Shown piece after piece: positions 11,201 through 32,389 of a stretch of DNA of 64,000 bases. The position numbers and the translations under genes are program-made. The stretch spans positions 2,170,001 to 2,234,000 of the forward strand of contig NW_027117339.1 of NCBI RefSeq assembly GCF_038025025.1, in the 5' to 3' direction. Under the pieces are notes generated by a model, which did no database searches, was not told the DNA's origin, and worked only from the letters and a program-made list of their open reading frames with translations. The first letter of the stretch is position 1, and each line of letters begins with the position of its first letter. The DNA comes from Phyllosticta citribraziliensis (taxonomy: Eukaryota).

Positions 11201-13521
11201 TGATCCTCCATTTCAAGTCTGAGCACATTGGCGGAGTTGCTTTTAGTTCCCGTGAGCATAGTCCGGAATCCAGGCTCGACTGGAAGAAGGATATGATTGA
11301 TCTTCCGGAGGAAGGGGCAATTTCTGCACTCATTCAATCGCCAGGAATGGACGATAACAAGCTTCGGATTATAGCAGAGGCCTTTCCGAAACTGTTCCCA
11401 TCTCCTTTGCCGCATGTTGGCGTTGTTACCGAAGAGGAGCACCCAGAGGCCACCCGTACGGCTGAAAACCTCAACGTTCACCAGCCCTCTCCAAGACCTG
11501 CGCTGGAATCAGACAGGATTACCTCCCGTCATGATGTTCCGCAAGGATCGCACTTGCGGTCCGCTCCTGCGGCAGGACATGATCTTTGCCGGTCACCCGT
11601 TTCTCGGTCTTCAACCCTCGCTCCTCTTCCAGTGTCCCGCGGTGTCTTCGAGCAACACGATAGCCAGCCACGGCTCCAAGAAGCTCGAGGTGAGTCGAGG
11701 CCACCCCGGAGATACCATGAGCGTTCCTTCAGTCCTTCAGCTCGAGACCTAAGGACACGGGTGTATCTCGAGGAACCTGGCTATTACGTAAGTCGAAATT
11801 TCTGTGATTTTCCCGATGAACCCAAAGTAACCGTCTTTCAGGGTTCAAGAGACTACCGAGACATTAGGGACCGGGACTATGATGGGGCTTGGCGAGATCC
11901 CTATGGTCCCTTGAGTTCAGCAGCCGTGCGCAGATATTCCCACTATGGTCGCATGTACGAAGATGATTGGGAAAGGTCTCATGCATCAGACCGCTATTAT
12001 CTCGAGCGAGAAGATGACCCTCGGGAGCGCGCGCCAACAAGGAGTGGACTTCGCTATCTGGACAGGCCAGAATTCAGCACTGGACCATCACAAGTTGGGA
12101 ACCACGAACCTCGCCCAAGAGATTCGGAGAGAGCCGATGCGCGCACAGTGTCTCGAGAGCCTCCAGCTAGAACATCTGCAGCGCCTAATGTAGAAGCTGA
12201 TGCTGAGCGTTTCCTGAACGACCTCGATAGAGACCAGGACCAGGCTCGCGGATACGTTTCTAGGGCCGCCCGAGATGAAGCGCGGGAAGATGCTGAGGAT
12301 AGAATGCGCCAGCCTCTACAAGCTCCAGAAGAGCCAGCAGCCCATCCTGTCGAAGATTCGAATGCAAACGGTTCCAATCCTAGCGCCACAAGGCCTGGCA
12401 CCTCCGGTCAGAACCGCGCAACCTTGGATCCAGATTCAACGGCAGGACGTGCACAAGCGCCATTGGAGAGGTACTACCGGGACGAGGAATACAGACCATC
12501 TGCGCAGTACGACCCTGAACCACGGCGTTATGCCTACGGCCCATCGCGCTATCACAGGTACAGCATGTACCATGAAGAGCCTTACTATGAGCCTGAGCGT
12601 CTTGCGCGAGCGCGCGGCAGTCGCTTCAGCCGCTACGAAGCCACCCGCAGACGTCTCGAGCAGTCCAAGTCGCCTACACGAGAAGCAACCTCACAACCGG
12701 AGCGTCTCCCAGGATCTCCCTCTCTGCCGCCACCTCCTGAGAGAACTCGCGATGAACCACAGCCCCACGTCCATGGAGTACCTCCGCGCGATTACTATCA
12801 CCCGTACGACGAGCATGACCGCTACTCCCACCGTCCATCTCCACTCCTCGACTACGGCTACACTGGAATGGCGCCTAGGCATCGTTCCGCCAGACCTGGC
12901 CCCGCCTACATCAACGAGTATGGCGAGTATGTCGAGTACGTCCGCGTTCGCGACCCGTACCGCGACCCGTACCGCGACCCTTACCACTCTGAGCACCGTC
13001 GCCGCTACCTTCCCGAAGCACCAGCTGCTGGGCCTTCTGCGCCTCCTTCGCACCGAGGTGGTGACCCACGTCTTGCCAGATACTACGATTATGCTCAAGA
13101 CGACTTGCGTGACCCCCGCGACCCCCGCACCGACGCCGACCGCTACGACTACCACCGTGGCGTTGTCGAAGACGAAGTGCGCTATGCTTCTTTTGAACGT
13201 GACCGGGAATACCACGACCGCAGTGGCGCGTATTACGGGAGGCCAAGGGATGCGGATGCCTTACCTGTACCAAGAGGAAGGGAGAGCATTGTCCAAAGGG
13301 ACTTCGAGCGTGACAGGGACCGAAGGTCGGAATTTCATGGGCAATCGGTTGGACCGCCCGAGGCTGGACCGCTCGCCGATAGTCAAAGGGAGCGAGAGGA
13401 GAGGAGAGAGAGCGTCGCGGTGTCGATGGCACCACCACTGGCGCCACCGCCGCCTGCCACGGAGAGGGAGGGTGGTGCGGCCACAGGAGGAAGGGAAAGA
13501 GAGGAGGGTGGAGACGAGTGA
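8211..13521 (+). CDS. Large F-box-like protein with zinc-binding (CxxC..CxxC and C2H2-like) domains and a long Pro/Arg/Asp/Tyr low-complexity tail, ~1692 aa
   Basis: F-box-like ARLPGHVWQHIFLYLHPLTLGRLLRVNRAF; CQFC...CGRC; CRGDGC..FEGIIQHFGAKH; CRAC..LILHFKSEH. Introns 8805-8858, 9298-9421 (CTAAC branch at 9403, AAG acceptor) and 11788-11841 give a continuous frame. Confidence 0.82.
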
Positions 13522-14396
13522 GTAGGGAGTGCGTGGAACTAATTCGAGGAAAAACAGTGAGGTGGGATGAAACTGCATTGGCATGGCATAGCACAGCATG
13601 GGAGCATTGCATGGCGTACGAATGATGCAAGAGCATGGCGCGGAGCATGTATGTATGTTTTGTGATTGCTGGGCACTTTCTCATTCACTCGACATGAAGA
13701 AGACAGGAGAAGAGGGGGAGTAAGTATGAGACGAAAGGCAGGGACGGGTGGTTTACGACAACCGACGATGACGACGATGACGCTGACGCCGACGCAGATT
13801 GTGGCATTTTCCCTACTTTCCACTGTCTCCTTGCACTTTCCCATTTGTCTTCCTCCTTGTACCAAATTTCCTTTTTTCTCCTATCATCCTCTCTTTCAAT
13901 CAGTGCCATTTTCTTGATCATCGGAGGTGAAAAGGAGAAGAGGGGCTTGAGTTGTCAATATATGGTAGCATAACATAGGTAGGTATGTATGTAGGTATGT
14001 AGGTAGGCTTCATCAATACGACTAATGACCATCGGACTTTCTCTGGGCCAATGCCCGCTACGCGGCCCGGTCGATCGCTTCCGCGTTGTTTTTGCGTAAT
14101 GAAGGCAGGCCATCAAGAGCAGCGGTAGAGCGGATACGAGGCCTTGGTCCACTCAGGCGTCTGTCGGCTAGGCACGTGTAACACACCTTGGTTGTTGACG
14201 TCCGGTCCGGGGAATGACTGGCTCGAGTTCTGACTCTAGCTTTCCGACGCGTTGGTGAACAGTGCATGAACGCTCCCTGCAAGCTCGCTTGGCTTGGGGC
14301 GCAGATTTTCGGACAGACTTGCCTCGAGACCGTTCAGATGTGCTGGCGAGAGAGGGTTGTACTTTGTGGCTATATTGAGCCACCGTCAGTCTGATT

Positions 14397-15048
14397 TTAC
14401 CTTTCCACAATTTCGCTCCGAAGGCGGATGCGAGAGGTTGAACTGATGTCCCGCTCAAAGCGAACAGTCGAGCTGCACTATCCAGTCCTATGACATACCA
14501 GTCTATTGTCCTTCGAGAGAAACGCCTCCAAATTGCGAGCAGATCGAGCATCAGCCGCCAGGAAAAGAGCAGCAAGATTCTGGAGTTTGATATCGGGAAG
14601 AAATCGAGGCGCAGGTCGTTTTGCAGTCCTCAGACGGTGCAGCTTTCGGTGGCCTTTTCCAGTTTGATGTTTGCGAAGTGGAACAAACTCTCCTTCCGTA
14701 CCACAGGTCATGTCGAACAAGTATTTGAATACTGCGTTGACCGCAAGCGCTAGCCAATGTTTACCAAGTGTCTTCGCTACGTGCCCAGGTGCGCACTTCG
14801 TACAAGAATCGTTGATGTGTCCCAGAAGCTTCAAAAGTCGACACGAGGACCTCTCGCCTGGATGCAATTTGTACGCAGGCTACTTGTTAGCAAGTTGGCG
14901 AAGGCGCTTCAATCCCCTGACTGACGTGGGACCACAGAAACACGCTTCGGTTCGGTCGTCGGCGCCCACCGCTGGTACGAAAAGGTCTCGTTTCTTGTCT
15001 CCGAAAGAGGGCTTGCAGTTGAGACAGCTTTGAAAGTTGCAGTGCCAT
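14397..15048 (-). pseudogene. Decayed paralog of the Cys-rich gene at 53957-54712
   Basis: Collinear motif similarity by eye: MALQLSKLSQLQALFRR vs MALIEKLRQLFRR; SCTKCAPG vs SCASCDPS; GKHWL vs GKNHL; FVPLRKHQ vs LLPIKRIQ; FLPDIKLQNL vs ICPHIRFCDL; CHRTG*CSSTVRF vs CKTRYCRTEFEF. In-frame stops at 14880-14882 and 14478-14480. Confidence 0.5.
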
Positions 15049-15359
15049 TTTTCCGCCAACGAGCGAGGGGCACCAACCAATCAAAACCCACTGCTCAAAC
15101 AGCCTTCACCTTTCCACAAGCCTCTGCCCAACATCAGAGGCCAGCGTCTACAGATCTCAGCTGAGCCGCCGCCTTGGTCAAATTCTGCGCCCGGGCTGTG
15201 GCTTTCTGCAAGGGTCAAGCATCTCACTTTCAGCTTCCTCGTTCGCCTCTCTGCTTTTCATCGCCGCCATCACTACCAACCTCGACCTCACCCGCACAAC
15301 TGAGGCTATCGATGCCCAATTAGTCGAAAGTCCAAATACAGGAAAGGATACTGACGACC

Positions 15360-16305
15360 ATGACAAGGGCAATTCCCAAGCTGAAGGGCCGAAGAAATTT
15401 CAACTGCTGGCGTAGGGCCGTCGTGTCCGCCTTGGCCGAACGCGAGCTTTGGGATTATGTGAGCGGAAGGATTCCAAAGCCTCCAGGGCCTGCATATGAC
15501 GACGTGTTCAACCTCAGCGTGAAGAATTACATGGACGCCGAACACGACCTTTCAGAATGGATCAAAAACGACAACAAGGCAATCGAGCAGATCACCAACA
15601 CTGTTCCGTCGTGGATGATCAACATGCTGAACGCCGAAGAGCGTAAAACATCGAAGGCCATGTTCAGTGGATTGAGCAACCGCTACAGCCCGAAGGAAGA
15701 CGACCACTATAATCGAGTGACGCGCTGGACAGTTCTGTGGTGGGATGGAACGTCAGACTTGTCCAAGTTTCTCGAGGAGTGGACCGCGGCACTTGCGGAT
15801 TGTCTTGACAAGAATGGATCAATTACCCCAATCTGCCAAGCCAGCCAGCTCGCGTTCGCAGTCAGAGATCAGGGCAGCAAAGAAGTCGATACCTGGGCTT
15901 CCGCTGTTTTCGGGAGATGCGCGAAGGACACAGTCTCGCCGCTTCACGAACTGCTGGAAGAATTGGTTGAAGTGGTGGAAAAGCAGATGGAGAGAGAAGC
16001 GACGATTCCATGAAGAAAGAAAGAGTCAGGTATGGAAGAGCAAAGATGCGAAAGGTGCGAGAGATCACGACATACCAAAGTTGGAGGCGATGGGGGAGAG
16101 GACCGCACCTTGCAGCTTGTGCCAGGTCATCAGCCCAGACATAAAAGAGCGACATGACCAACATCATATTCTCAAAAGGCAAGAAAGCTTTGAAATCGGG
16201 AAAGGAGAGTCAGATAAGGAGGAGAAAAGGTCGGCATGGCGGACAATGCAATCGGGTTTGCTCAAAGGCCGGAAATGGGTTGGAAGGTCGTGGATACAAA
16301 AATGA
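15360..16305 (+). mobile_element. Ty1/copia gag-like gene, copy 1 (intact 217-aa ORF 15360-16013; degenerate knuckle and tail beyond the stop)
   Basis: IPKLKGRRNFNCWRRAVVSALAERELWDYVSG is a classic copia gag N-terminus. After the in-frame TGA at 16011 the frame reads RKKESGMEEQR-CERCERSRHTKVGG (CX2CX4HX4, last C lost). No pol motifs follow. Confidence 0.75.
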
Positions 16306-17054
16306 GTTAGTGGCAGCTGGATTCCGAAAAGCTGGTGAATGCTCCCAGCCAACAGATTAGCAGAATCTTCTTGACTTTGTCTCCGTGTCGTGACGATGCT
16401 AGGTGCCTCTCAGGCATGTGGTTGCAGGGGTAGTTAGGCATTGGCCCGTCGTAGAATCAGCAAACAAGTGAGAGCTGCTTGCGCTGCCGTAATAGCCCAT
16501 GAGTACAGATACTCAGTCAAGTCTCCAAGTGCAAAGAAGCTTCCACTACGTTCAGGTCCAGAAGCGCATCATCTTTTGAGCAGTAGTTTGCCGGCGCTCG
16601 CGTAAATTACCCAATTGGGATTAGGGCGGGCGCGTTTGGTCGTCGCGTCGCGCTCTGCAACACCATTCGCTCTCCATCACCACTATCAATCCTGCGCATG
16701 AAGGCTCCCCCAGCTCAAGGTCCGCGACAAAACTTGTCGAGGCCAGAGCGCTAGCCGTTGCGTCATCGGACTCTCACCAAAAACCTCACCTGTTTCTTTT
16801 CAGCGCCCGGCTGCGTTTTCGAATTTCACGAATCACCTCCAATCGTCGTTGGCCTGGACTTCGCCTGGCGTCAATGCAAATTCGCGGAGCGGCGCTTCGA
16901 ACACTCCCTCCACTACCCAGCTTCACTTCTTTTCCATTTTCTCGCTCACGGCGCCTTTGTCTTCCTTCAACTCCAAAGGACCACACACGTTGCTCCACTC
17001 GCCCACGCTGCGCCCTGCGACCTCACCCAGCACAATCATTTGCAACGCTCCAGA

Positions 17055-20000
17055 ATGGTTGGTCTCACGAGACCCCATGGGGCCATCCTTGAAAGATTGA
17101 TCTTCCACGTCGTCCTTCCCGAAAAGCTTCCAGGCCGACAAGAAGAAAGCAATCCAGAGATAGCGGCCGCTCTCACCGAGCGTCTGCTCCAAGCCAGCCG
17201 CACGCTCAGAGATCACGCACCGCACGAGGACTTTCAGCTGTGGGATGACCTGCGACGCATCATCATTACGGCGGAGGAAGTCAATCGCAATGGTCAACCA
17301 AGCAAGGCTGCCCTCATCAAAGCATTTCATGAGCTTGAGCCCGGCGGTGTGATCATTCTTCACGTAAGGGAGCAGAACGCAGGAGTCCTAATCAGCAGAC
17401 CCTCAAAGTATGTGGTCTACTTGAGTGAATTTTCCTCCCATTTCACTAATGTTCAATCCCAGGGAGCGTTCCTCCGTCTTCTTTGAAGCCTTTGAGGCCT
17501 CACCGCGATCCGAAGATGTTCTTGCAGCTCCAGACGCTCTACAGTGGGACTTCCCAGGCGCCGCGGCGGTCATCCCGTATACGGAATTCTCGAATGAGGC
17601 ATTCCAAGACAGCCTAGCACATTTCCTCCAACAAAGCACCACCCAGGCCCTAAAGCAGTTCGCAGCACGTGCACGCAAGTCTGGATCCTCTGTGGTTGAG
17701 ATTCGCGACACACCTGATCCTGCCATCATCACACACATGCTGATGACTTTGTTGAGGTCATACGGCGTCCCATCCAATCCTCCTGTCCTGCGGAAGCGCG
17801 TGCGGGATGATGTGTGCTGGTCCGACGGCGCTGAGATGCCTTGGCGGCGATGCCCTGACTGGCTCGTGCTGCGTGTCGGCCTCGCAAGATATCTGTGCAA
17901 TACATACGGTGGTGAGGTGGGACGAGCACGCTACAAGTTTCTCATGTGCGTAATCCTGGCAAACCTCCTCCGCGATGCCGTCGGTGTTGTGAGCTTGCAG
18001 CCACTACACAATCTGAGGGCAAAGCTTGCGCGTCGCCTTGCGAAACTTGAGACTCACAGAAGGCAATGCTCGGCCGCGACTGAAGCAGTATACCAATCCT
18101 TCTTCTCAAAACTTGGGCCGCTTTTTCATGAGTCGCTCCAGACGGCCAGCGGCCATATCGAATCAGAGTGGGCTGCCTTCAAAAAAAAGAACCAGACACC
18201 CGTGAGGCCTCTTCCACTCCGAGCTGAACCTGTCAACCTCACCTTGTCTTTGCCGAAAAGCAGCGCCTATTTGAACGCTATATTACTCGACCCTCTTCCC
18301 AACGATCGCCACTCCCTTTTTCCGACTCAATTCGATGGCTATGCGGTCAACCAAGCTTTTCAAGCCTTTAGCGAGCTTTACCACGGCCTTAATGAGGTTG
18401 AACATGAAATCGAAGATGGCAGCTTCAGCAGCTCCATAAAGCACCTTGATGATGAGGACGCTTGCGCTGAGATATCGAGAAAGATTGAGAGCTACATGCA
18501 AAGCGTGGGGCCAGCTTATGATGGCATGGCCACTCAAAAGAGCCTCATGATACTGACATTACTGGAATTGTGGACGATGATGGACAAACACGCGATCAAA
18601 GAAATACCACTCTTGTCTAGCTACCACCCAGGATTCTACTCTAGCACCCTCAGCGTCCTGCACCTCCCTCGGTACGCCGACATGTGCCGGCTGCAGCGCA
18701 TCCAAAAGTATCTCGACGAACGCTCCCAGAACGCGGACTTTCAGGAGAGGACCATTTTTGAGAATCCAAGCGTTGGATGCTTTGCCGAAAGGTACTACGA
18801 CGAGTATGACGATTCTGGGGAGCTGAGGGACCTCCATGAGTGCATCGAAGAGCATGCCCAGACTATGCGCGAGCTCAAAGCGGAGGAGCTGGCGATTGCC
18901 AACAAGGAGTTCGAGGAAAACGAACGCGAGATCGCCCAAAGCTCCTGCATCTACATCCAAAGCGTCACCGGGAGCATTCCGTTTCATGACAAACGCAATT
19001 GTAAAAGATGCGATCTGTTTCGTAAAAAAAGCGAAATGGAAATTGAAGTTTACGAGCATCCACTGCCATCAGACTCGGCGTCGAGCAAAGCGGCAGTGTT
19101 TGAACTGTGTTGTCCAGCGGCCTTTGCGATTTACCGCAGCACGACATGGAGAGTTCAACATTTCCTGGTCTACCCCGGCGCCAGCGCCTCAGTTGAACCA
19201 CGCGTTTTGCTCCAAGACTACCTCCCGCTTCGCCCATTTGTGGAATATTCATTTGGACCCGTCACATTGGCTTCCACTACGAAGTCCTTCCTAGGCACTC
19301 ATTTTCGTTGGGCAAAACGACTCCCAGCGAGCGAGAGCGAAGTGTGCCAGCCCAGCGGTCTCACCGGACTCGGCTATTACGAGCCATCCAGCAAAACCTG
19401 GCCTGGTCGGCAGACGACCAGGAAGCATTCGTTGGCACATCACTTTCAGTGGGCGACACCACCGAGCTCCGCTTTGTCATGCCTCAAATCTTCCCCCACT
19501 TTCGCTGTCGACTCCAACGGGCCTTCCTCGCACGATATTCTCGCCAGCCAGACCAAGTGCCCGGCTGGTGTGAATACACAAGAGTTCATGGCGTATCAAA
19601 GCCTTTTCGCTGGCAAACATCGCCGTTGGCCTTCAATTCTGATTGAGTTAGGGTCCTCCAATTTAAATTTCAGCAAAGAAGAAACAACTGCAATCATAGC
19701 CCAGCTAGCTGTTCAGGCAGGGCCTGCAAAAGGCACAGATCCGCTGCGTCTCACGCACGGTATCTTCCGCGATGAGGCCTTCTGCACGAGGCTGCTGTCT
19801 CAAATCGAATGGCGACTAGATTCAATCTCTTTGAACTGGCGTGAGACGAACTTGATGGAGCTGCTCATCACGCTGCTTCTTCGCACAGCGACGCTGGCTC
19901 ATAGATCTACCGCAGTGAAAGCGCTCGATCTCCTTGATTCAGCCCGGCGCGTGACTGGTCATTGGATCAGACAGCTACGCGACGAGATCCACCAAGCAAA

Positions 20001-23000
20001 GGACTCCGAAGCCTCCCGAAGATGCTCCAGGTACGCTCTTTGGGCAGCCCTGCTCTGTCGCAGGACATATGCTACTCTGATTGATGAGATTGGCCAGCCT
20101 GGAAGCATTCAGCCCCAAGCAGTTCAGTGCTTCGTTGAAGAATCTATCGCGCTTCAAGACAATCTTGTCAGCAATCCAGCGACGCTGCCAGCATCTCTCA
20201 AGCAAGCGGTGGTCCGCGATTTCCGAATGCGTTTCTTGATGAAGGCGCTTGTTCGAAAATCCATCGAATGCTCCCCCGGCAGTGTGACCACCGCAATCGA
20301 CACGGTTTGGCCAAGACCGAACGGCGGCCATCCAAGGATCTACTCAAGCCCCAAATTTTTGAACGCTCCCCAGGACAACGCACAGTGGGTCGAATTCGAA
20401 GTGGATGGGAACGTCGAGGAGAAGGGACAGACCGTGCATTACGAGATGCACGACGGCCATCTCCTCATCGACCAGAATCCTCTTGGCAGACTTCCCATTG
20501 AACTTAGAGGGTCTGTTGTGCTTGAGGAACTGTTTGGCACACAACGATTGCGTACTTATCCCTCGTCGTTGCGCGGGATGACGCATATGCTGAGCTGCAC
20601 CCCGAAAGGCCATCAGATCCATATTGGCTTGCGCAATGGCTTGTTGTTTGTTCGCGCGTATCACTGCGGCAATATCCTTGAGCTGATTCCTAGGACCTTG
20701 TTCGCAGAGGATCTGCCAGCATCTCTGGTAGAGAATTGTCTACACTGGCTCAATGTGCAAACAGGACAAATGGAGGTCCGTCAACGCCCGGATATCTGGA
20801 TTTGTAAGCCGAGCAACTGGATTGTGGATGTACCTCTTCGGCTCGCACGTCGCCGCAAAAGCACGCTGGTTGATCCCCACAGTTCGCTGTTTCAGAGAGT
20901 CGCACGAATGCTCCTTGGGTTCGAGTATCCTTCGCAACTGACGGTCTACCAGCCCGAAAGTTTCAGGCTTTCGGTTGAACTACGCCGTCTTGAACTGAGC
21001 TTCCACGTGAACCACAATGGCCTCCTCTACTGCAAGGAGCTGAAAGCCGAGATCGATCCTGATCAGGATGCTGGAACATGGTACGGCCTCGATTCCAAAG
21101 TTGTCGTCAGGGACCCAGACAACCCACGACGAAGGAGCATCCTCGTTCCCATGGGGCCATTATCTTGGACGCGCAACGGCTGTCATGTGGCTATCAGCGT
21201 ACAGAACATTGGCGAATACGGCATTTTCACGATCAACGACGTGTTAGGACGTATTGACTGTCAATGTGAGGGTCGACTTCTCTACATGAAGGCCCAGTTG
21301 CACGCTTTTACCTCTTTCGTGCTGCCCGACCCTCTTACCCGGCGGACCGGGACGGAGGAAGCTCTCCATTGCCTGAGGTCGAGTCTCTGCCAGCCTTGGA
21401 CGCCGCTCAACCCTGCTTGGTCGAAAATGCTTGACTCCATCGCAAAGCTAACTCCCAAGAGGGTGTACTATCCGAAAGGTTTGAAGAGCATGCAACAGGT
21501 CTTTTGGGACCCGAATCTCACCACAAGCATTCAGAACGACCAGTTCTGGTCCGTCATTACTGCAATCTATGACAGTTCTTCGGCCCTTTCTATTTTCTCC
21601 CCAAAAGAAGTCATCATCCAGTGTCCCGAACGTGGCGGCAGTGGACACCTGTCCAGCCGCAGTCAAAGAAGGCGGCGCGCTTTCTGGCGGCGGAGCGACC
21701 GCGATGAGCAGCATTCAAGGACGCCAGACACACCCTATAAATCACGAGATCGTTCGAAAAAGATGGAAGAGTGCGCCAGAGTCTATGAGGCCGTTTCACT
21801 CATACGCTCATGGGATGCGCGTTTGCCCCAGCGGCCACATCTCGTTGCTCTGCTCAATGGCTTACCAAACATTCAAGGACACGGACACCAGTTTAACGAC
21901 ACACTTTTGAGCGACCTGCTCGATGTGAATTTCGGCCTCGAATGGGGCTCCCTGGTGGATTTGTGTCGTCGGTCAAGCGAGCGAGAAAAGCACTCTCTCA
22001 GCTTTCTGTTCGGAATCATGTCATTCCACCAGGATGTAGACATTGAAATCATCAGAGTTCTTATCGCCTTTGCGGTTTCCAAAGATCTCAAAGCCATCAA
22101 GCCTCCAATGTGGCAATCCTACTCCCACTTCAGGCACGGCCAGGTCCCATCAGTCAATTACATCTCGCAGATCATCGGCAGCTTCCGCACTCCCTACATG
22201 TGTGACGGAGAGAGGGCGTTCATCCCCAATGCGAAGCTGAAGCGGAAGAAAGAGTTGGAGCATCACCAGAAATCAGAGCGCGATGTCAGTCTTCTCGCGA
22301 AATTCTTCGTACAACAATGGCCATGCGCTGAACCGACCGTTGACAAGCTCACCAGCAGCCAATCTCTCCTCGTAGACGTCTTTCGGGCCTTGGAAGTGAT
22401 TCGGCCGGAGTGGGTACGTCTGTTCCAAAACTGGGAGCTCTCCGAATACATCGCACGTGTCCAGCAGGTGCTGGATCAATTCAGCTTTGGGGGTGAACTT
22501 TTGGTGCCGGAGGTTTGCCCTGGGAACCCCGATGTCCTTTCAAGAAGCTTCAATCCCATCGACGTCCCGAGCCTTGGTGAACTGCTACGGAAGCGATGTA
22601 TTTTGAGTAAAGAGGGCGCAGAATCACCTACAAGGGAACGACAGGATCTGCAGCATCGACGCATTGACTTACCAATCTCCGAAATCAATTGCCAAGCGAA
22701 GAACGATGATGTTCTCACTCCAGAGGTGCAGGAACTGGAAGCAGTGGTTTCCAGGCTTGTTTCTTCAAGCTCGACCGTTCGGCATGAATATGGTAAAGAC
22801 CTACAACGGAGCTTAGATGCGCTCAAACTCGGCCAAACCGCATCCCGGCACCAGAAAGAGAAGCCCTCAATCACCGTCAACACTTCCTCCGAATCGGTCG
22901 TCAACGCCCGCTTCGACCGCATCTGTAAAGGCCTACACTCGCGCGATGCTCGCGCTGCGTGGCTCGACGCAGGTGGCTTGTGGCCATGTATCAGTCCCAC

Positions 23001-26000
23001 CACGCTCCTCGAATTGCTGCGATCTACCTCTAGAACCAAACTGGGATTCGGTTGGAGGGAAGCAATCATACAGTATGCGTTGTCCATTACAGAGCTTCAG
23101 AGACTACTAAGAAGCATTCATGCCGGTTTGAAAAACAATCCGAGGGGAATGGAAGAGGAACGAAAAAACCTTGGACACGAGAACTGGAACCCCGCGGAGC
23201 ATCCCGACTGGCTTCTTCTAGAGATTGACGCCAATATCCTGATCCGACCAGACCAAGTCGACGTCGCTCTTGCAACCATATCTCCAGCTTCCAGCGGTAA
23301 TTCTGTCTTGCAGATGAACATGGGTCAAGGCAAAACATCGTGTATCATGCCCATGGTTGCAGCTGTCCTTGCAGATTCGAAGAGACTGGTCAGAGTCATA
23401 GTCCCGAAAGCTCTGCTTCTCCAAACTGCGCAAACCTTGCAGGCGCGGCTTGGGAACCTCTTAGGAAGAGATGTGAGACATGTCCCGTTCTCACGAAAGA
23501 CTCCAACGGCGATCGACACCATCAAAACTTTCCTGAATATCCACAGGGATGTACTGGAATGCTCCGGCGTCATTGTCGCCCTGCCAGAACATGTAATGTC
23601 GTTTACGCTGAGCGGAATACAGCGCCTTTCGGACGGTCGCGACGCAGAAGCGGTCCCAATGATCAATGCGCAGAAATGGATGCGCAGGATATGCAGAGAT
23701 GTACTTGACGAGTGCGACTTTACGCTCGCTGTCCGAACGCAGCTCATCTACCCCTCGGGTCGACAAACCCACGTTGACGGGCATCCCGACCGCTGGGAGC
23801 TTCCCGAGGCGCTACTAAAGCTCGTGGAGGGTCACTTGTGGAACCTACGTCGAAAATTTCCACGAAGCATCGAGGTCGTGTACAGGCAAGGGGGCGGTTT
23901 CCCCTGGATTTTCTTCCTCCGCAAGGACGTAGAAGAAGCCCTGGTATTATGCCTGGTAGAGGATGTCATTCGTGGCCGTGTGCGAACAATTCCTCTGCAG
24001 GACAGCGACGCTGAGACCTTGAGAGCAGTCAGGAGCTTCATCAGTGGACCTCAGGTGGATGCGTCTGCTGCGGAACAGGTGGATGCGCTTCCAAGTACGA
24101 CCAAAAAGGGCGTCTACCAGCTTCGTGGTCTACTAGTTCACCGCATTCTACTCTTGACGCTCAAAAAGAGATGGAACGTGCAGTATGGACTGCATCCATT
24201 GCGGGACCCGATTGCAGTGCCGTACTACGCAAAAGGCGTCCCATCAGACCAGTCCGAATGGGGTCACCCAGATGTCGCCATCTTGTTCACCTGTCTCTCC
24301 TTATACTTCGCCGGCTTGACACTTGCCCAGCTTCGAGAATGTCTGCAAAGCGTTCTCAAGGCTGACGACCCTTCCAGCAGGTACGATCGTTGGGTTGAGA
24401 GCGTGGGGAGCCTCCCTGGCCCGCTTCGAGAGTGGAACATCATCAACGCCGACGATGAAGCCCAACTGCTCGAGCTCTGGGGTCATTTCCGCTACAGTGT
24501 GGTTGTTATCGATTATTTCCTCAACCATTCCGTCTTTCCAAAGCATGCGAAGCAATTTCGAACGAAGATTCAGGCCTCAGGATGGGACATACCGTACTTT
24601 GAGCCGCAGTCGTCGAATTCATCCAAGCCAACAGCAAAACCTTGTCGGGCTTTGACTACAGGGTTTAGCGGGACTAATGATAATCGCACCATGTTGCCGC
24701 TGACAATCAAGCAAGACGACCTGTCGGGGTTGATGCACACGAACGCCGACGTCTTAACGTACCTGCTGCAGCCACGAAACCGAGGCTACTTCCTAGCGGC
24801 TGACCACTCTGGGAAGCGGGTATCAGAGATGGGGTTACTTCAGCGACTGCACGACCGGAGCATTCGCATGCTAATCGATGCGGGAGCCCAGATATTGGAG
24901 ATGGACAACAAGACGCTAGTCAAAGCCTGGATGGATGTTGATACTCAGTCGAAAGCAGCTCTCTACTTCAAAGAGAACAAGCCATTCATCCTGTACCGAA
25001 ACGGCACCGAAGTTCCTCTCTTAGCGTCCCCGTTCATCGACGACTTGAGGGAGTGCCTGGTCTATTTGGACGAGGCCCACACCCGTGGCACAGACTTGAA
25101 GATGCCTGGCGACGCCGTAGGTGCTCTGACCCTTGGACTCGGGCAGACAAAAGACCACACCGTACAAGCTGCTATGAGGTTGAGGCAGCTGGCTTCAACG
25201 CAGTCCATCGTGTTTGTGGCAACGCCAGAAGTGCATCAGAGCATTCTGGACCACAATCAAAAGGCCGAAGGCTCGTCCGTCGACTCCTGCGACGTTGTTT
25301 GTTGGCTTCTTGAACAAACGTGTGCTGGGATCGAGCAACTTCAGCCACTCTACCATTCCCAAGGTATGGATTTCTGTCGTCGTGCGCAAGCTGCAGTCGA
25401 CAACCCGGACTACTTAAGCGACACGACCGACTTGGAGGCCTATCTGAAGGAAATGCGCCGCAAGGAGCACCAGACCGTTGAAAAGATGTACCAGCCGAGA
25501 TCTACTAAGGTCAAAGATGTCGACGCGATCGAATATTTCCACTCTGCCAATATTGCTTCTTTCAGGACTGAGCTGAACCGCCGCCGCAAGGCCTTCCAGG
25601 ATGCTGGTTCCGCCGTTCAAGGCGTAGCCCTGCAAGAAGTCGAGCAGGAGCGTGAGGTCTCGCAAGAAGTTGAAGCTGTCAGGGAAGTTCAAAAGCCGCT
25701 CCGTGTCACGCCTCTGAGGTATGGCGGCCTTCATGGGGACATCGCAAAATTTGCTCGAACTGGCAAGGTTACTTTTGGATCTCCTAGCTTTGAGCATCTC
25801 TCTGTTGTCCTAAGCTGCACCGCGACAGGCCGGAAGCATCGACTAGGTGACGAGTGCATTCGCACCAGGTTACTGGTATCTAGAGAGTTCTTGAAAACGG
25901 TGGCCTTGGGTCACCCTGACGACCGCTTCTTACGTCCAGTAAACTGGTTACTCTGGTGCGAGGCAACAGAGACCGCTCTAGTTGTGACACCGGAGGAAGC

Positions 26001-26541
26001 CGAGGATCTTATTCCACTGGTCAAAAGGGCTGAGAAGAAGAGCTCAATAACGCACCTTCTCACATACGCGGCGCCAGTGACCAGAAAAATGCTACAATTC
26101 AATGGCCTGCGATATTACAGCATCCCAGAATTGCCCGAAAGCTGGGCTCCCCCACAATGGACAACTATCGAACTGGGTCTCTTGGCCGGACGGCTGTTTT
26201 TCGAGTTTGACGAGTACGTCAGCCTCGCCAATTACTTCGGCCTTTCTGTCAAGGAGCAGGTAGGGGAGCATTCAGACGGTATCCGCGAAGCCGTCGAAGG
26301 GGAAGAGAGTGAGTATTCGGATCGTCACGAAGACACAACCACCGAGGACCAACGTGACCGCCACGTCCAAGCATGTTTGTCGATTCGAGATTCAACCATC
26401 AAAACGCTCGAATTTTTGCAAGAGTGGCTTTCAACCAGACGCAGGGGCCAAGAGATTGGCAATACGCCCATGGGATTCGTCTGTCACGGCATGCTGCTAT
26501 CCGCGGATCATCCCTTTTTCAATCCAGCCAAGAGTGACTGA
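17055..26541 (+). CDS. Giant DUF6606/DUF3638/DUF3645-type protein with SF2 helicase-like P-loop NTPase motifs, ~3143 aa
   Basis: Exon 17055-17407, intron 17408-17462 (GTATGT..CTAAT..CAG), exon 17463-26541. N-terminal LIFHVVLPEKLP; Walker A-like QMNMGQGKTS; DECD; IAVPYYAKGVPSDQSEWGHPDV; GFSGTND; LIDAGAQ; YLDEAHTRGTDL; KDHTVQAAMRLRQL; EVEQEREV. Confidence 0.88.
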
Positions 26542-26611
26542 ACCTACAGATGAGCGATTTGCCACACTTGCGGCGAACAATGCTGGCTTTTCAGTTGCCT
26601 TTCGACTAACA

Positions 26612-26686
26612 ACTCTGCGACGACTGACTCTGAGACGACTGACTCTGCGACGACTGACTTTGCGACGACTGACTTTGCGGCAACTA
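26612..26686. repeat. 15-bp minisatellite (ACTYTGCGACGACTG) x5
   Basis: Units start at 26612, 26627, 26642, 26657 and 26672; the last is degenerate. Confidence 0.9.
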
Positions 26687-27663
26687 ACCTGTACAAGCTA
26701 CAGGTGAGCAAGATCATGAACGTGTCGTACACACAACCATGGCTGGCCCCCGTATCCGCGCTTCGAGTCATTGGAGTATCAATGTCTCAATGATCTGTCT
26801 CGTTCATCCGCTGGAAACTTGAATGCTTCCTCTTTCCACGACCCGAGTGAGCTTGGCTACACTATCACTGACGACAAAACTCGTCTCCGTGGAAGCTCCG
26901 TATTTGCGTAATCTGTCAGGACTGGAAACGGGTTGGATGATGAACAGCGAAGAGAGGAAGGGAGCTGTCTGGGAATACGTAGGTAGTTCAGACTTGGTTA
27001 GATAGAACATGCAATGCATGAAACTCATGCTCCGTCACTGCTGTGTCCTGATATAGATGCGTAGACTTCGTCGAACTCGTGAGGAAATTATGGCTGCAAA
27101 ATTTTGGGGCTGGTGGGCATTGCGCGTAGGTGCAACGGGCAGTCACCCAAACGTCCCTTCTGCTCTAGGCAAAACTATACATCATCGCGCCACGCACCCA
27201 CAAGCTGGCCATGGCCTTCAACCCACATTCATCGATTTGAGCCCTTCGGAAAAGTGACAAACAGGCGGCTCGCTTGCGCCGCACATCGCCTACTGTTGCC
27301 AACGCCCTCTCTCTCGCCGTCGCCAGTGCCAGCGCCGTCGCCGCCTCTTTTTTGTCTTGCAAAGGCAAAAGAAACCTCATCCTCGACCCCGGGCTTAGAT
27401 CTGCAAGACCATCCATCCCACGCCATCATTTGATCGACAGCGTGAGTGCGCTGCTGCCGTTTCTTGTCAACATCACTTCTGACCAGCCTTTGCGCAGGAA
27501 TCTTACCTGAGACCCATCCGCCGCGGGTGATCAGCTTGCTGGGCGCGTTTGTCTGCCTGTCGCCTTGGCTTCCTCCGCCGTTTTCCATCACCGAGCACAG
27601 ACTTAGCCTCGTCACTGAAGCTTCATCCAGCCCCATCACCGCCGCCACCAACCGGAGCACATC

Positions 27664-28697
27664 ATGCCAACTCAAAGAATTACGGAAGTCCCAATGCTGC
27701 AAGGAGACAAAATTTACTTATCTTGGCGTGCTGATGTTGAAGCCCGCTTTAGAGAGTTAGGTTTCTACGAACATGCTATTGCCGACCAGGACTTCGACCA
27801 GGAGGTCTACAAACGTTGTCCGAGCGAACCTGACTACTCGACATACAAAGAAGATAATCGGATGGACAAATATGACCAATGGAAGTCTCAAGAAGCCAAG
27901 GCCCATCGTGTCATCCGAAATTCAATCTCAGGCTGATGTGTGAAACAATGACACTCAAAGAAGGTGGCGGATCCGCTTCTGCCTGGACCATCATGAGCGA
28001 CCTTCAGAAGCGATACACCAGACTGAACCACGCAGAAACCCAGTACATTGTCCATCAACGCTGGCACACGATAAAATGGGACGGCGACTACATTGGGTTC
28101 TTCATTTCCAAATGGAGCGCTGCTCTGACAGACTGCCTTGACGCCGGCATCGAAATCTCTGAAGACACAAAGTTCTTCACGCTAATGTCCGCTATCGACG
28201 TTCAAGAAAAAAAGGTCTTCAAGAATTGGGTGCGCCTGACATTGGCTGAAACACAGATCAAGGGCTACAAGACCCTGGGTGTCTATTTCCGTGAGCTTAT
28301 CGACACTTGCACCTTTGAATCAGAAATTAGAATGGCACAGGTCGAAGGCGACCCAAAAATGATCACTAAGAGAAGGTGTGGAGTGTGCGGAGTGACGGGT
28401 CATGTGTCGCGTGGATGCTGGCATCTGCTCCCGGAAATTGCTCCAAAAGAGCTCAAGTTTGAACCTGACAAGAGGCTTGTTCAGGAATTCTTCAAGCGGA
28501 AAGCGGAGGCAGACAAGCGCAATGACAAGACCAAGGGCAAAGAGCTGGGAGAGGAAGGTGATATTGAAGAGATCATCAACGAAAATTCAGGAGAATGGGA
28601 AATGGTCATGGGGGGGATGGTTTGGTACAAGGACTACCCGAAAATTGCAAGGGAAGAAACAGAGTGGTGGCAGGGAGTCCAAGGCAGCAATGATTAG
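27664..28697 (+). mobile_element. Ty1/copia gag-like gene, copy 2 (single frameshift near 27934) with intact CCHC zinc knuckle
   Basis: VPMLQGDKIYLSWRADVEARFRELGFYEH N-terminus in one frame. The rest continues in the -1 frame with RWHTIKWDG..DCLDAGIEI and CGVCGVTGHVSRGCWHLLPE (CX2CX4HX4C). No pol follows. Confidence 0.8.
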
Positions 28698-29225
28698 GAG
28701 TGCAGAGGTATCAGAATAACAACACCAAATGAAATAGGTTTAGCAAGCTTGTCCTGTGGGTGGCACCAGATCAAGCAGGGGTAGTCACCGGGTGTTGAGC
28801 GTTACCTGACCAGCTTTGAAAAGAGAAGCTTGAGAATGGCAAAGTGACAAGACCGTGTGAATTGTCGATCAAAATGACATCTAGCTGACCAGCTCAATCG
28901 CCGTGCCTGAATTTGAGCAATGAGGTAGTCCGTCTAAACAAGGACTCCGCCACCACTAATCCGCTTTGTGACGGAACTCCGTGTTTTCACGGAATAGTGT
29001 AGCTGGCGTTTGCAAAGCAGATTCGCCAATCCTCTCCTAGTAAAAGGAATTGCTAAGTGAGCTCAATGAAATCCTAAGCATAGGCCGTCCTTCGGATACA
29101 GCAAAACACCTTTTGAACGCAGCCATTCCGTGTTCTGGTCGCGCCAATTTCCTCGACAGTTTCGCCACCGAGCCCACCGCCATTCGAACCACAGCTTCAC
29201 GAAGACCACACAAGCAGCGTCCATC

Positions 29226-30041
29226 ATGTCGGACTACAAATGGCCAAAATTGGAAAGTCCCTATGACTTCAAAGCATGGATGCGAGGTCTGAAGACCAGT
29301 CTCATGCTTGAAGGATTTTGGGAACACGTCCACGACGGTACGCCTGCAGTATGAGACTCTCCCAGTCCCACGGCCATCTAATTGGATACCTTCCCAGACT
29401 CAAAGGTCATCGAAAATGACAACGCCTGGCTGGCCAAAGATTGCGAGGCAAAAATATTGATATGTGCGTCGCTGGCAAATTGGTACATGGCCGTTGAGGC
29501 AGGATTTGAAACAGAAAACGCTCATACCATGTACAACAATCTGGTTGAGAAATTCAATATCGTCAACAAAGTCAGCAAGTACAGGCTTTACCAATCCTGG
29601 ATTGGGCTACAGTGGGACGGGACCTATCTGGAAGATTTCCTGGCCAAGTGGATCATGGCAGTTATGGACTGCCGCGACGCTGGCATCGAAATTTCCAACG
29701 AAGTCGAGGTCCTGACTTTTGTCGCCATGGTCGCGAAATGTGGCAATGAGACTTTTGAGCAATGGGCTCATTTGAAGATGCTCCAAGCGCCTAAACGGGA
29801 GATTCCGGAGGACGTCGAATTGTTCCGCGAGCTTCGCGAGCTCTGGATTTGACAAGTGTACAGGTGTGGAGATCAAGAGGAGCGGAAGAAGACCTGCGGT
29901 GTTTGTGGAAACAGAGGCCACACTCCTGATGGATGCTGGCATTTACATCCTGATCTTGGCCCTGAAAAGTTTCGACAAAGGAAACAGCTTGTCAGAGCAT
30001 GGAAGCTGAGGATGGAGATGCCCATCGACGAAGACAAGTAG
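29226..30041 (+). mobile_element. Ty1/copia gag-like gene, copy 3 (one frame, three in-frame stops) with intact CCHC knuckle
   Basis: MSDYKWPKLESPYDFKAWMRGLKTSLMLEGFWEHV; SWIGLQWDG..DCRDAGIEI; CGVCGNRGHTPDGCWHLHPD. Stops TGA 29352, TAA 29379 and TGA 29850 are all in the same frame. Confidence 0.8.
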
Positions 30042-30448
30042 AATCATCATAATATCGAATGCGGCGGCTCTCATCGCGCGTACGGCGACACATGATTAGA
30101 CAAGGAGTATTTCCCTTGAGTCTTGCTCGGAGAAATAAAACAGGAAATAAAGACGAAGTTGGTGGCCTACACATAACCGACAAACCCTTCCTCTTAAGAG
30201 CCGATGCCATAACACCGTGCGTGCCTGCATTGAAGTCCTTCGACTGAAATTGACGCCGCGAATCGCATGGATCCTCCCCACGGGCGCGCGCGATTGCCGT
30301 TTGGCTACAGTGCGCGTGCATAAGCCGGGGGAAGGCTGAGACGACCTGTCGGACGAAACTATGCGATGGAAAGAAGGAAAGAAGTAGAATGAAGCCAGCG
30401 GGGTGTTGTTCTGTGGTGGGTTGCTGCCTTCCTAGACGCGGCGACAAG

Positions 30449-30484
30449 GCGAAATCACAAGCTTAGCGAGATCACAAGCTTAGC
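30449..30484. repeat. 17-bp tandem duplication GCGARATCACAAGCTTA x2
   Basis: gcgaaatcacaagctta gcgagatcacaagctta gc read directly. Confidence 0.8.
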
Positions 30485-32389
30485 TCTAGGCCCAAGTTAG
30501 TTAGACTCGGTCTCCCACAGCGAATCAGCGCGCGCACTTGCAACATCGAACGTAGTAAAAAACATTGCATTCATATCATATTCTGCGTGGCACGATGGGA
30601 CTGTTGAAATTGTATGAGAGAAATGGCGCCTCAAATTACTTCACCAACACGCATGCCTACACATCGGCGAGGAGCTCGGTTTGCAGCTCTCGTCTAGTAG
30701 ACTTTTCAAGTCCAGTCAGATGTGCGTGAGATGCAATAACCAGCGCACAGCAGCCAAGTGAAGGGCGAAGCTGATTTCGTCCAAAGGCTCTTCCAGCGGC
30801 AAAATTTGGGGTTTGAACAGCAGCTGCTCCACCAGATTTGAGATTTCCATTGCGAGAACACATCCAATCCAGAGTAAATGACCGATAGAAACACCGTATT
30901 GTAGTTTGAACTCCGTGCATGCAATACTCATCGTAGATAACCCCATGGGACGAGTTGAATTCTCGACTCAAATTTCAAGCCGTTGACCCATCGGGTCACT
31001 TGCGATCTTTCGTCAAAAGAGGAAGAAGTATGAGCCAAATTTTGTGCGAGCTACTTTGACTTTGGCATCATAGTCCCCGCAAGGTAATGGAATGAAGAAA
31101 ACTTGACATTCTGGGTTTTGCGAGGTTGGTTTCAGAGGCCAAGTTTCGTCGTTTTCGAGTTCTGCCGAACACATGTCCGGTCACCGCACGACTTTGGACA
31201 AAAGCGACAGAAACCTGGGTGATTGGCATTGCCTCCTGTTAGAAATTTGGCCTGTGAAATACAGCATAGGCATTTTGAGATGGCGTAATGACTTCTGAGG
31301 GTATGCAGTGCTGCTTCCACAGGCACTTCTTGGTCGCATTAAACCCCCTTCAGTGTGCCCCTTTAAGACCATTTCGGCTCCAAGAGCCAGCTAACTCGAG
31401 AGGTAACATGGGAACGGCCCGAATTATGGGACCAAATGAGTTGGAAATAGTACGATGCAGGTCTTCATCTGAAATCCGACCGACAAGGCCCGCCCAGCCC
31501 TTGGCCAAGCTGCGGAAGGCCAACGAAGGGACCGCAACATGTGGGACGGCCAACACAGACGGAGAGTCAGGAAGGGAGAGGATATACAGGGAGTATAGGG
31601 TAAGTTATCAGGCGATATCGAACCCTTTATGTTGCGTTTCCAGGGATTTGAAGAAAACCCCGAACGAGCACCACTCACGTGACAATCACATTCCAGTCTT
31701 GACCCTCCGATGTTTCCAGGAACCAACGCTACACTACTCCACGTTTCGAACCGACTCATCCTTGCTTCACCATCTGCAAGTTCCGGTGGTCTGAATCTGG
31801 GAGGTGATGGGCGACGGCTTACGGTTCTCAAAGGATCACCATGGTTTGCTGAACTTGGAGACTTCGTCATGCAATGCTCTCCGCAATCGATTATCTTTTC
31901 TTTTCTTGGTACTCCTGCCGCCACGCCTCAAACCCAACTTGCGAAGCCATCTCAGCCTCCTCTTCCATTGTGTCCACCTAAAATCGTATAGCCGACGCCC
32001 TTATCATACAGGGCGATACATTCGTACAATGCAAAGAAAATATCAGACTTCCGCACCCCTGCCGCCTCTCATCACACCGCATCGCATCGGGGTATCAGTA
32101 CAATTATATCGTGTCTGTCCCAGCCTTTGCATCCGCGTCTGTTTCCGAGCAAAGCGTAGAACGAGCCAAAAAGAAAAGTGACCAAAAGTCGTGAAAACCG
32201 AAAAGTTCAAAAGCCAAAGGAAGCCAAACGTGGCATTTCAAGGACGGATAGGCGTATGTGTCGCAATGCGCCATCGTGAAAGCAGAAGCAAAGCAGAAAG
32301 GGACAAGCGCGTTGGCGGCGGAGCCCGCATGTCTCGAAAACGAAGAGGTAAAGTCTCATGTCCACTCTCGTGAGCTGCACTTGGGTCCA

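Follow-up and report, generated by a model that had tools for sequence, protein, structure and literature searches.

Three Ty1/copia capsid genes around a giant DUF3638 gene in Phyllosticta citribraziliensis: probable host retention within one genus

We describe here a cluster of three gag-like loci in a 64,000-nucleotide (nt) stretch of the genome of the fungus Phyllosticta citribraziliensis (contig NW_027117339.1, positions 2,170,001 to 2,234,000; hereafter the window, whose own coordinates are used throughout). All three lie on the + strand, with ATGs at 15360 (g1), 27664 (g2) and 29226 (g3). The three loci are Ty1/copia capsid genes and are not parts of a retrotransposon. They are likely to represent a family of copia capsid genes that was co-opted at the level of the genus, has gone through duplication and loss, and consists of host genes under selection. 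Somewhat less firmly, we lean towards the fuller account, in which the loci are host-retained (co-opted) genes of the Phyllosticta lineage with the history and mechanism set out below.

Capsid genes without a transposon

An earlier, sequence-only reading of the window had taken the three loci for paralogous genes on one strand, and translated searches within the window (tblastn) bear this out: g2 and g3 are 32.6% identical over 181 amino acids (aa; E 7e-26), g1 and g3 23.7% over 207 aa (E 5e-12), and g1 and g2 26% over 107 aa (E 2e-6). A fourth gag-like copy in the 64 kb is found neither by tblastn nor by a hidden Markov model (HMM) of the family, run over all six-frame open reading frames (ORFs), and there are 0 Rfam matches across 14000–31500. 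The W-x4-WDG blocks quoted for the three loci in that reading are present letter for letter at 15726–15809 (g1), 28062–28142 (g2) and 29598–29678 (g3), and correspond to the first helix, the loop and the second helix of the capsid's C-terminal domain (CA-CTD). It had also placed a CCHC-type zinc knuckle behind each block, which holds for g2, where the knuckle is in frame (28377–28418), but not for the other two as they stand: in g3 an intact knuckle (29895–29936) lies beyond an in-frame TGA at 29850, and g1 has only CX2CX4H past its TGA. The reading frames are thus not all clean, g2 being frameshifted and g3 requiring an intron and carrying a TGA before its knuckle.

Kinship with copia Gag, likewise proposed beforehand, is supported weakly by Pfam, and it is the structure that is decisive. 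Retrotran_gag_3 is above its cut-off on g1 only (26.1 bits against 24.1), Retrotran_gag_2 is below it everywhere in the cluster (g1, 23.6 bits against 27; g3, 17.3 bits), and the g2 body matches no Pfam copia-gag model at E<=0.01. The relatives P0004 and P0008 pass Retrotran_gag_2, and an ESM Atlas model of g1 likewise matches Retrotran_gag_2 clusters. AlphaFold2 (AF2) folds of the gag-like proteins are confident (for g1, a predicted local distance difference test score, pLDDT, of 92.2 from an 18-row alignment) and predict a two-domain, all-helical capsid fold, consisting of an N-terminal domain (CA-NTD) and the CA-CTD, like that of the solved copia and Ty1 capsids. The capsid interaction domain (CA-CTD) is, on these models, retained.

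The remainder of a retrotransposon is missing, as the sequence-only reading had stated. Four copia polyproteins align with the window solely via residues <=306, that is via Gag, and do so at the three loci (tblastn), so that there are no Pol remnants: no protease, integrase, reverse transcriptase or RNase H. Direct or inverted repeats of the long terminal repeat (LTR) type are absent from 12000–33000. Nor is the DNA AT-rich or marked by repeat-induced point mutation (RIP), with a GC content of 0.49–0.53 and a TpA/ApT ratio of 0.29–0.35; GC at third codon positions (GC3) is 0.59–0.65 in the gag-like genes and 0.60 in the neighbouring gene.

Transcripts and the structure of the three loci

Two sets of Logan contigs, X3 and X4, bear the same organism label and come from two studies; they are flagged 'RNA?', and no listed run is recorded as RNA. 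We read them as derived from cDNA because of four joints with GT..AG borders, namely 14870/14938, 17407/17463, 27441/27498 (X3 only) and 29336/29397 (both runs). The three introns associated with gag-like loci all have canonical donor, branch and acceptor sites. g1 and g3 are expressed as host transcripts: spliced contigs cover g3 in both studies, and one covers g1. A lack of expression, which had been named as a mark of transposon debris, is therefore not what was found.

The g1 transcript begins with a 67-nt intron in the 5′ untranslated region (UTR) at 14871–14937 (+; GTACGC...CTGAC...CAG), which is joined out in an X3 contig (14870->14938), and all of g1 lies within one X3 contig, 14938–16522. 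The coding region, 15360–16013 (+), specifies 217 aa that make up the capsid NTD and CTD only and ends at the TGA 16011–16013. Past this TGA and in frame with it, 16047–16073 (+) holds a decayed half-knuckle, CX2CX4H, in which the final Cys is missing and which the family HMM does not match significantly (E 3.1). As modelled, g1 codes here for a stable protein of 217 aa that consists of the capsid alone. The g1-type gene models in P. capitalensis are longer, 475–511 aa with a long Lys/Glu-rich insert (P0031 / P0007), and one of them has half a knuckle followed by the family tail. Because half-knuckle and tail are kept there, either the g1 knuckle was lost only in the citrus-associated lineage or the P. 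capitalensis models may be mis-spliced.

g3 is an abundantly represented spliced mRNA for a 188-aa capsid-only protein, the knuckle now lying past a TGA. Exon 1 (29226–29337, +) matches positions 1–41 of the family HMM (E 8e-9) and is covered by both X3 and X4 contigs. It is followed by an in-frame intron of 60 nt (29338–29397, +; GTACGC...CTAAT...CAG), which contains a TGA at 29352 and a TAA at 29379 and whose joint (29336/29397, cut +1, GT..AG) occurs in a single X3 contig (depth 79.9, side 210) and a single X4 contig (depth 100.3, side 194). Exon 2 (29398–29852, +) ends at the TGA 29850–29852, and the spliced ORF of 188 aa comprises capsid NTD and CTD. Beyond the TGA, 62 further codons remain open (29853–30041, +), with the intact CCHC knuckle, the family C-terminal motif and a TAG end; this tail matches HMM positions 209–257 (E 6e-20) and shares 62% identity with the tail that P0023 has in frame. 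The transcript contigs, 29127–30389 and 29143–30144, include the tail and show 0 differences, and because they cross it in this way the TGA at 29850 is present, unspliced, in the mRNA. An intron removing this TGA was considered and rejected, since the RNA contigs continue straight across. In the relatives P0003 and P0023, annotation treats the homolog of the g3 intron as coding sequence; it would be either coding sequence that turned into an intron or an in-frame intron that is read through in the relatives' gene models.

At g2, a 56-nt intron (27442–27497, +; GTGAGT...CTGAC...CAG), with its joint 27441->27498 (GT..AG) seen in X3 only, lies upstream of the ATG; it is probably in the g2 5′UTR, an assignment that we infer. 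The gene itself is in two pieces. The N-terminal piece of 90 aa (27664–27936, +), which was left out of the alignment underlying the family HMM, matches HMM positions 4–78 (E 2.4e-7), is in another frame than the body and ends at a TGA. The body, a 249-aa ORF from an internal Met (27948–28697, +), contains the end of the NTD, the CA-CTD, the knuckle and a disordered tail, and matches HMM positions 82–286. The annotated g2 protein, P0001 (249 aa), begins at this internal Met and carries the sole in-frame CCHC knuckle of the three loci. The break cannot be an intron because the gap between the pieces is too short. A programmed ribosomal frameshift was also rejected as a candidate, the shift being inside the capsid NTD and not at a gag-pol junction. 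The body has no X3 or X4 cover across 27850–28917, and the upstream joint alone is seen. g2 is probably decaying, or is at most a source of an N-terminally truncated product of CTD and knuckle.

Relatives and chromosomal place

We searched 1.84 billion representative proteins with a profile built from the proteins of all three loci; 22 matched at E<=1e-3, and 8 of these reached E<=1e-10. These eight are P0001 from the window itself, five proteins named as Phyllosticta and two without a species label; the first of the Pol-linked gags follows at E 3e-8 and the others are weaker. Proteins of the g1 type occur in P. citrichinensis and P. capitalensis, and those of the g3 type in P. citrichinensis, P. 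citricarpa, P. paracitricarpa, P. citriasiana and P. capitalensis. A word-indexed search with a 15-row alignment returned only 4 proteins, and a metagenome scan with a closer alignment (A4) matched 72 patterns and yielded 0 relatives. Near-identical copies inside full elements, another announced sign of debris, were found neither in the window nor in the protein sets searched.

In a tree of 23 rows, for which the Pol-linked sequences were trimmed to 300 aa, the 11 rows from Phyllosticta group together in one clade (support 80/90), within which the g1 clade (100/99) and the g2+g3 clade (95/91) are separate; outside it are Pol-linked gags of Botryosphaeria, Lasiodiplodia and one further contig. 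Near-identical cluster members (P0004, P0007, P0024, P0025, P0027–P0030, P0034 and P0035), fragments (P0015, P0019), low-complexity proteins (P0012, P0017) and an insect protein (P0020) were left out.

On the assumption that accession numbering follows contig order, we used it as a proxy for gene order. The accessions of the gag-like protein and the ortholog of the giant DUF3638 protein encoded between g1 and g2 follow each other directly, or with one number between them, in 12 assemblies of four citrus-associated species (P. citrichinensis, P. paracitricarpa, P. citricarpa and P. citriasiana). In P. capitalensis, 5/5 assemblies have their nearest DUF3638 homolog on a separate contig, and the g1-like and g3-like accessions are consecutive in the 2/2 that list both. 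A relative, X5, has g2 and g3 together on one 3173-nt contig. By this proxy, orthologs in five other named species appear to lie at the same chromosomal place within one genus, whereas a lack of syntenic orthologs was to have spoken for debris. The proposal that the family was locally duplicated is plausible; the duplication is, however, old, because g1 and g3 types both occur in P. capitalensis. The spacer between g2 and g3 differs in X5 by an indel, in which 510 other letters replace 11 nt at 29043–29055.

Constraint and divergence

g1 and its P. citrichinensis counterpart P0002 align end to end, with the same stop residue. From the amino-acid divergence and a stop-to-missense mutation ratio of 0.063–0.067, about 6 nonsense hits would be expected under neutrality between g1 and P0002 and between g3 and P0023, and the probability of none is 0.002–0.003. 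This supports, by proxy, open frames kept far beyond the neutral expectation. Between paralogs, the proportion of nonsynonymous differences (pN) is below that of synonymous ones (pS) by the Nei-Gojobori method, for instance 0.30 vs 0.87 for the g2–g3 tail, a weak proxy because synonymous sites are saturated (pS 0.74–0.87).

The giant DUF3638 gene and its surroundings

Between g1 and g2 lies a giant gene of the P-loop/DEAH-box type with DUF6606, DUF3638 and DUF3645 domains (17055–26541, +; intron 17408–17462, joint 17407->17463, GT..AG), whose exon-1 start at 17055 is presumed from the list of ORFs. All three Pfam matches are above cut-off (DUF3638, 2e-91 and 305.7 bits; DUF6606, 5e-56 and 190.4 bits; DUF3645, 3e-15 and 55.7 bits), and the translation shows a GQGKTS P-loop and a DEAH box. 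Across 3002 aligned aa the protein has 100% identity with P0037, which is named from P. citribraziliensis. For a protein of 3000 aa it evolves fast (78% identity to P. citrichinensis, 68% to P. capitalensis), and several paralogs exist there. At 25016–25107 the contigs of all four runs branch or end and depth is high; because this stretch encodes the conserved DEAH-box segment, the extra contigs probably come from paralogous DUF3638 genes. About 70 nt past the stop codon, 26612–26679 holds a 15-nt tandem repeat of 4.5 copies with 94% matches. Upstream of the whole cluster, 9274–13521 is a 1415-aa low-complexity ORF, rich in Pro, Arg and Asp, with DUF7892 (E 2e-49).

Alternative explanations

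A number of observations weigh against co-option and have to be set beside those given above. The RNA nature of X3 and X4 is a guess resting on four joints, and the contigs show neither expression level nor protein production. A single frameshift near 27930–27950 splits g2, which is also the longest branch of the tree and which, in a word-indexed protein search, retrieves itself only, with no ortholog in the protein collections. In most g3-type relatives the capsid reads into knuckle and tail without a stop; the TGA of g3, together with the g2 frameshift, therefore indicates decay in progress in part of the cluster. The clade support is moderate, and gags of Phyllosticta transposons may be missing from the protein sets; gene order is judged from accession numbers only; and the argument from retained ORFs relies on gene models drawn by annotators, and such models can skip stops. 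Furthermore, the family diverges fast. Identity to P. citrichinensis is 61% for g1 and 78% for g3 (P0003), as against 78% for the giant protein next to them; between P0023 and P0026 it is 93.8%, compared with 97.7% for the giant protein; and overall the protein divergence of the family is 1 to 2.7 times that of the giant gene. Such divergence fits an arms race, and equally it fits relaxed constraint. Much of this is what one would see if the loci were old transposon debris, that is, remnants of one or several ancient copia insertions that are transcribed by chance and drift neutrally toward loss, and this explanation can also claim the decayed g1 knuckle, the Pfam scores that mostly fall below cut-off and the restriction of the family, as far as searched, to one genus. 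We nevertheless regard debris as unlikely: the capsid cores are open where about 6–8 nonsense hits are expected, the position of the g1 stop is conserved between species and pN is below pS, the predicted folds are confident, the introns are canonical and the transcripts spliced, the locus is kept in several species, and no LTR or Pol trace is left, yet the gag cores are intact. The host gag-derived family put forward by the sequence-only reading is thus supported by the transcripts of g1 and g3, the introns, the kept place, the single clade and the open frames.

Other explanations give the genes another role. Capsid-derived proteins might serve a cellular function outside defence, as with Arc, PEG10 and PNMA, by self-assembling into shells that resemble capsids, or into scaffolds, for the traffic of RNA or protein. 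We think this improbable, given that g1 has lost the RNA-binding knuckle and g3 is cut off from it, that a housekeeping role would not usually go with rapid divergence and turnover of genes, and that no unusually stable RNA fold, which could have hinted at programmed readthrough, follows the TGA of g3 or g1 (z −0.81 and 0.01). It had also been suggested that the gag-like genes are linked to the DUF3638 gene that they enclose, and a functional module of gag-like proteins and DUF3638 nucleoside triphosphatase (NTPase) would account for their same-strand adjacency here and, by accession order, in the 12 assemblies of the four citrus-associated species. The suggestion is unsupported and such a module very improbable: the adjacency is absent in 5/5 P. 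capitalensis assemblies, in which the DUF3638 homolog sits on another contig, yet g1-like and g3-like genes are consecutive in two; in Aplosporella the gag-like P0011 and the DUF3638 protein P0046 are on contigs that differ in length; DUF3638 proteins are spread across Pezizomycotina (1210 matches at E<=1e-20) and the gag family is not; and close relatives share synteny by default. The adjacency is clade-limited synteny and does not speak for a shared function. Gag-only non-autonomous mobile elements are known as TR-GAG, and a coding content that is solely gag would suit elements of that kind, still mobilisable; this we consider very improbable as well, as there are no terminal repeats in 12000–33000, the copies are 24–33% identical and not near-identical, their chromosomal place is fixed across species, and they contain introns.

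A proposed history and mechanism

For the co-opted capsid genes that we favour, the following course can be proposed. An ancestral gag, with CA-NTD, CA-CTD, CCHC knuckle and short acidic tail, would have lost pol and its LTRs and then duplicated, ahead of the split between P. capitalensis and the citrus-associated species, to give the g1 type and the g2/g3 type. Host-type introns would have been gained, and quick evolution with gene birth and death would have followed. As the most plausible mechanism, the retained capsid interfaces may bind the Gag of related copia elements and poison the assembly of their particles. A precedent exists in yeast, where, according to PMC10951436 and PMC12530519, an endogenised CA-CTD (Drt2) poisons the capsid lattice and so restricts Ty1′, with p22/p18 acting likewise in Ty1. 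Because intact capsid interfaces, a dispensable knuckle and rapid divergence with turnover fit Drt2 and p22/p18, lattice poisoning is suggested by analogy here as well; as the function of the Phyllosticta genes we hold it to be tentative, with the odds leaning against it.

A more specific version would make the cluster a set of fast, tandemly expanding capsid-derived restriction factors under birth-and-death evolution, making it a counterpart of Drt2 and Fv1 in a filamentous fungus, with paralogs directed at different copia lineages and knuckle loss turning an assembling Gag into a pure lattice poison. On that account the stretch that is coding in the g3 relatives would have become a spliced in-frame intron removing two stops, and readthrough of the UGA-C stop could give a minor isoform in which the g3 knuckle is restored. 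We regard this version as doubtful.

Comparison with known systems

The co-option of gag has been well studied in animals, and fungal cases are few: one survey gives three deep events, and yeast has DRT2. The Phyllosticta locus presents a young, multi-copy series, with a stable capsid-only g1, a g3 just without access to its knuckle and a frameshifted g2, while sister species still hold the full capsid-plus-knuckle form. It is thus a natural series for how Gag becomes a host protein, and one that can be followed further, many Phyllosticta assemblies being public. It also bears on whether filamentous fungi have capsid-based control of transposons, control in these fungi being usually attributed to RIP and RNA silencing. 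In the literature searched we found no description of the Phyllosticta gag family.

Among animal systems, Arc/dArc, PEG10 and PNMA2 are derived from Ty3/gypsy and belong to another superfamily as well as another kingdom; each is a single conserved gene whose role is known. Fv1, too, is a single conserved gene with a restriction role, from another superfamily and kingdom than the Phyllosticta genes. The Drosophila copia capsid (PDB 8vvw), to which the window proteins are 13–16% identical, is part of an autonomous element with Pol and LTRs. Ty1 p22 (PDB 7nlg) arises from an internal transcript of an active element, whereas g2 is a stand-alone, frameshifted locus. Drt2 of Saccharomyces cerevisiae (PDB 9rxy), to which identity is 10–18%, is essentially the CA-CTD of a recent relic, with Ty1′ as its target and restriction shown by experiment (PMC10951436, PMC12530519); g1 and g3, on the other hand, keep NTD and CTD.

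A close parallel lies in the fungal class that includes Phyllosticta. PMC8321522 describes Crtg12 and Crtg13 as Ty1/copia gag genes co-opted in Dothideomycetes, present as single copies and delimited above the family level; it names syntenic orthologs, natural selection and expression support as the criteria for a co-opted gag, and counts it in support of Crtg14 that a gag-derived region contains an intron. Like Crtg12 and Crtg13 as described there, the Phyllosticta genes are copia gag without pol, in a syntenic place and expressed. Unlike these genes of Pleosporales and relatives (PMC8321522), with which they are compared by description only, they form a family that is genus-level as far as found, in a multi-copy cluster, fast-evolving and partly decaying. 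None of the 22 matches at E<=1e-3 in our profile search is named as Pleosporales. The co-option of copia gag in Dothideomycetes is thus already known, and the Phyllosticta family adds a further case; of interest in it are the clustering of several copies, the loss of the knuckle seen at different stages and the spliced in-frame intron that removes two stops.

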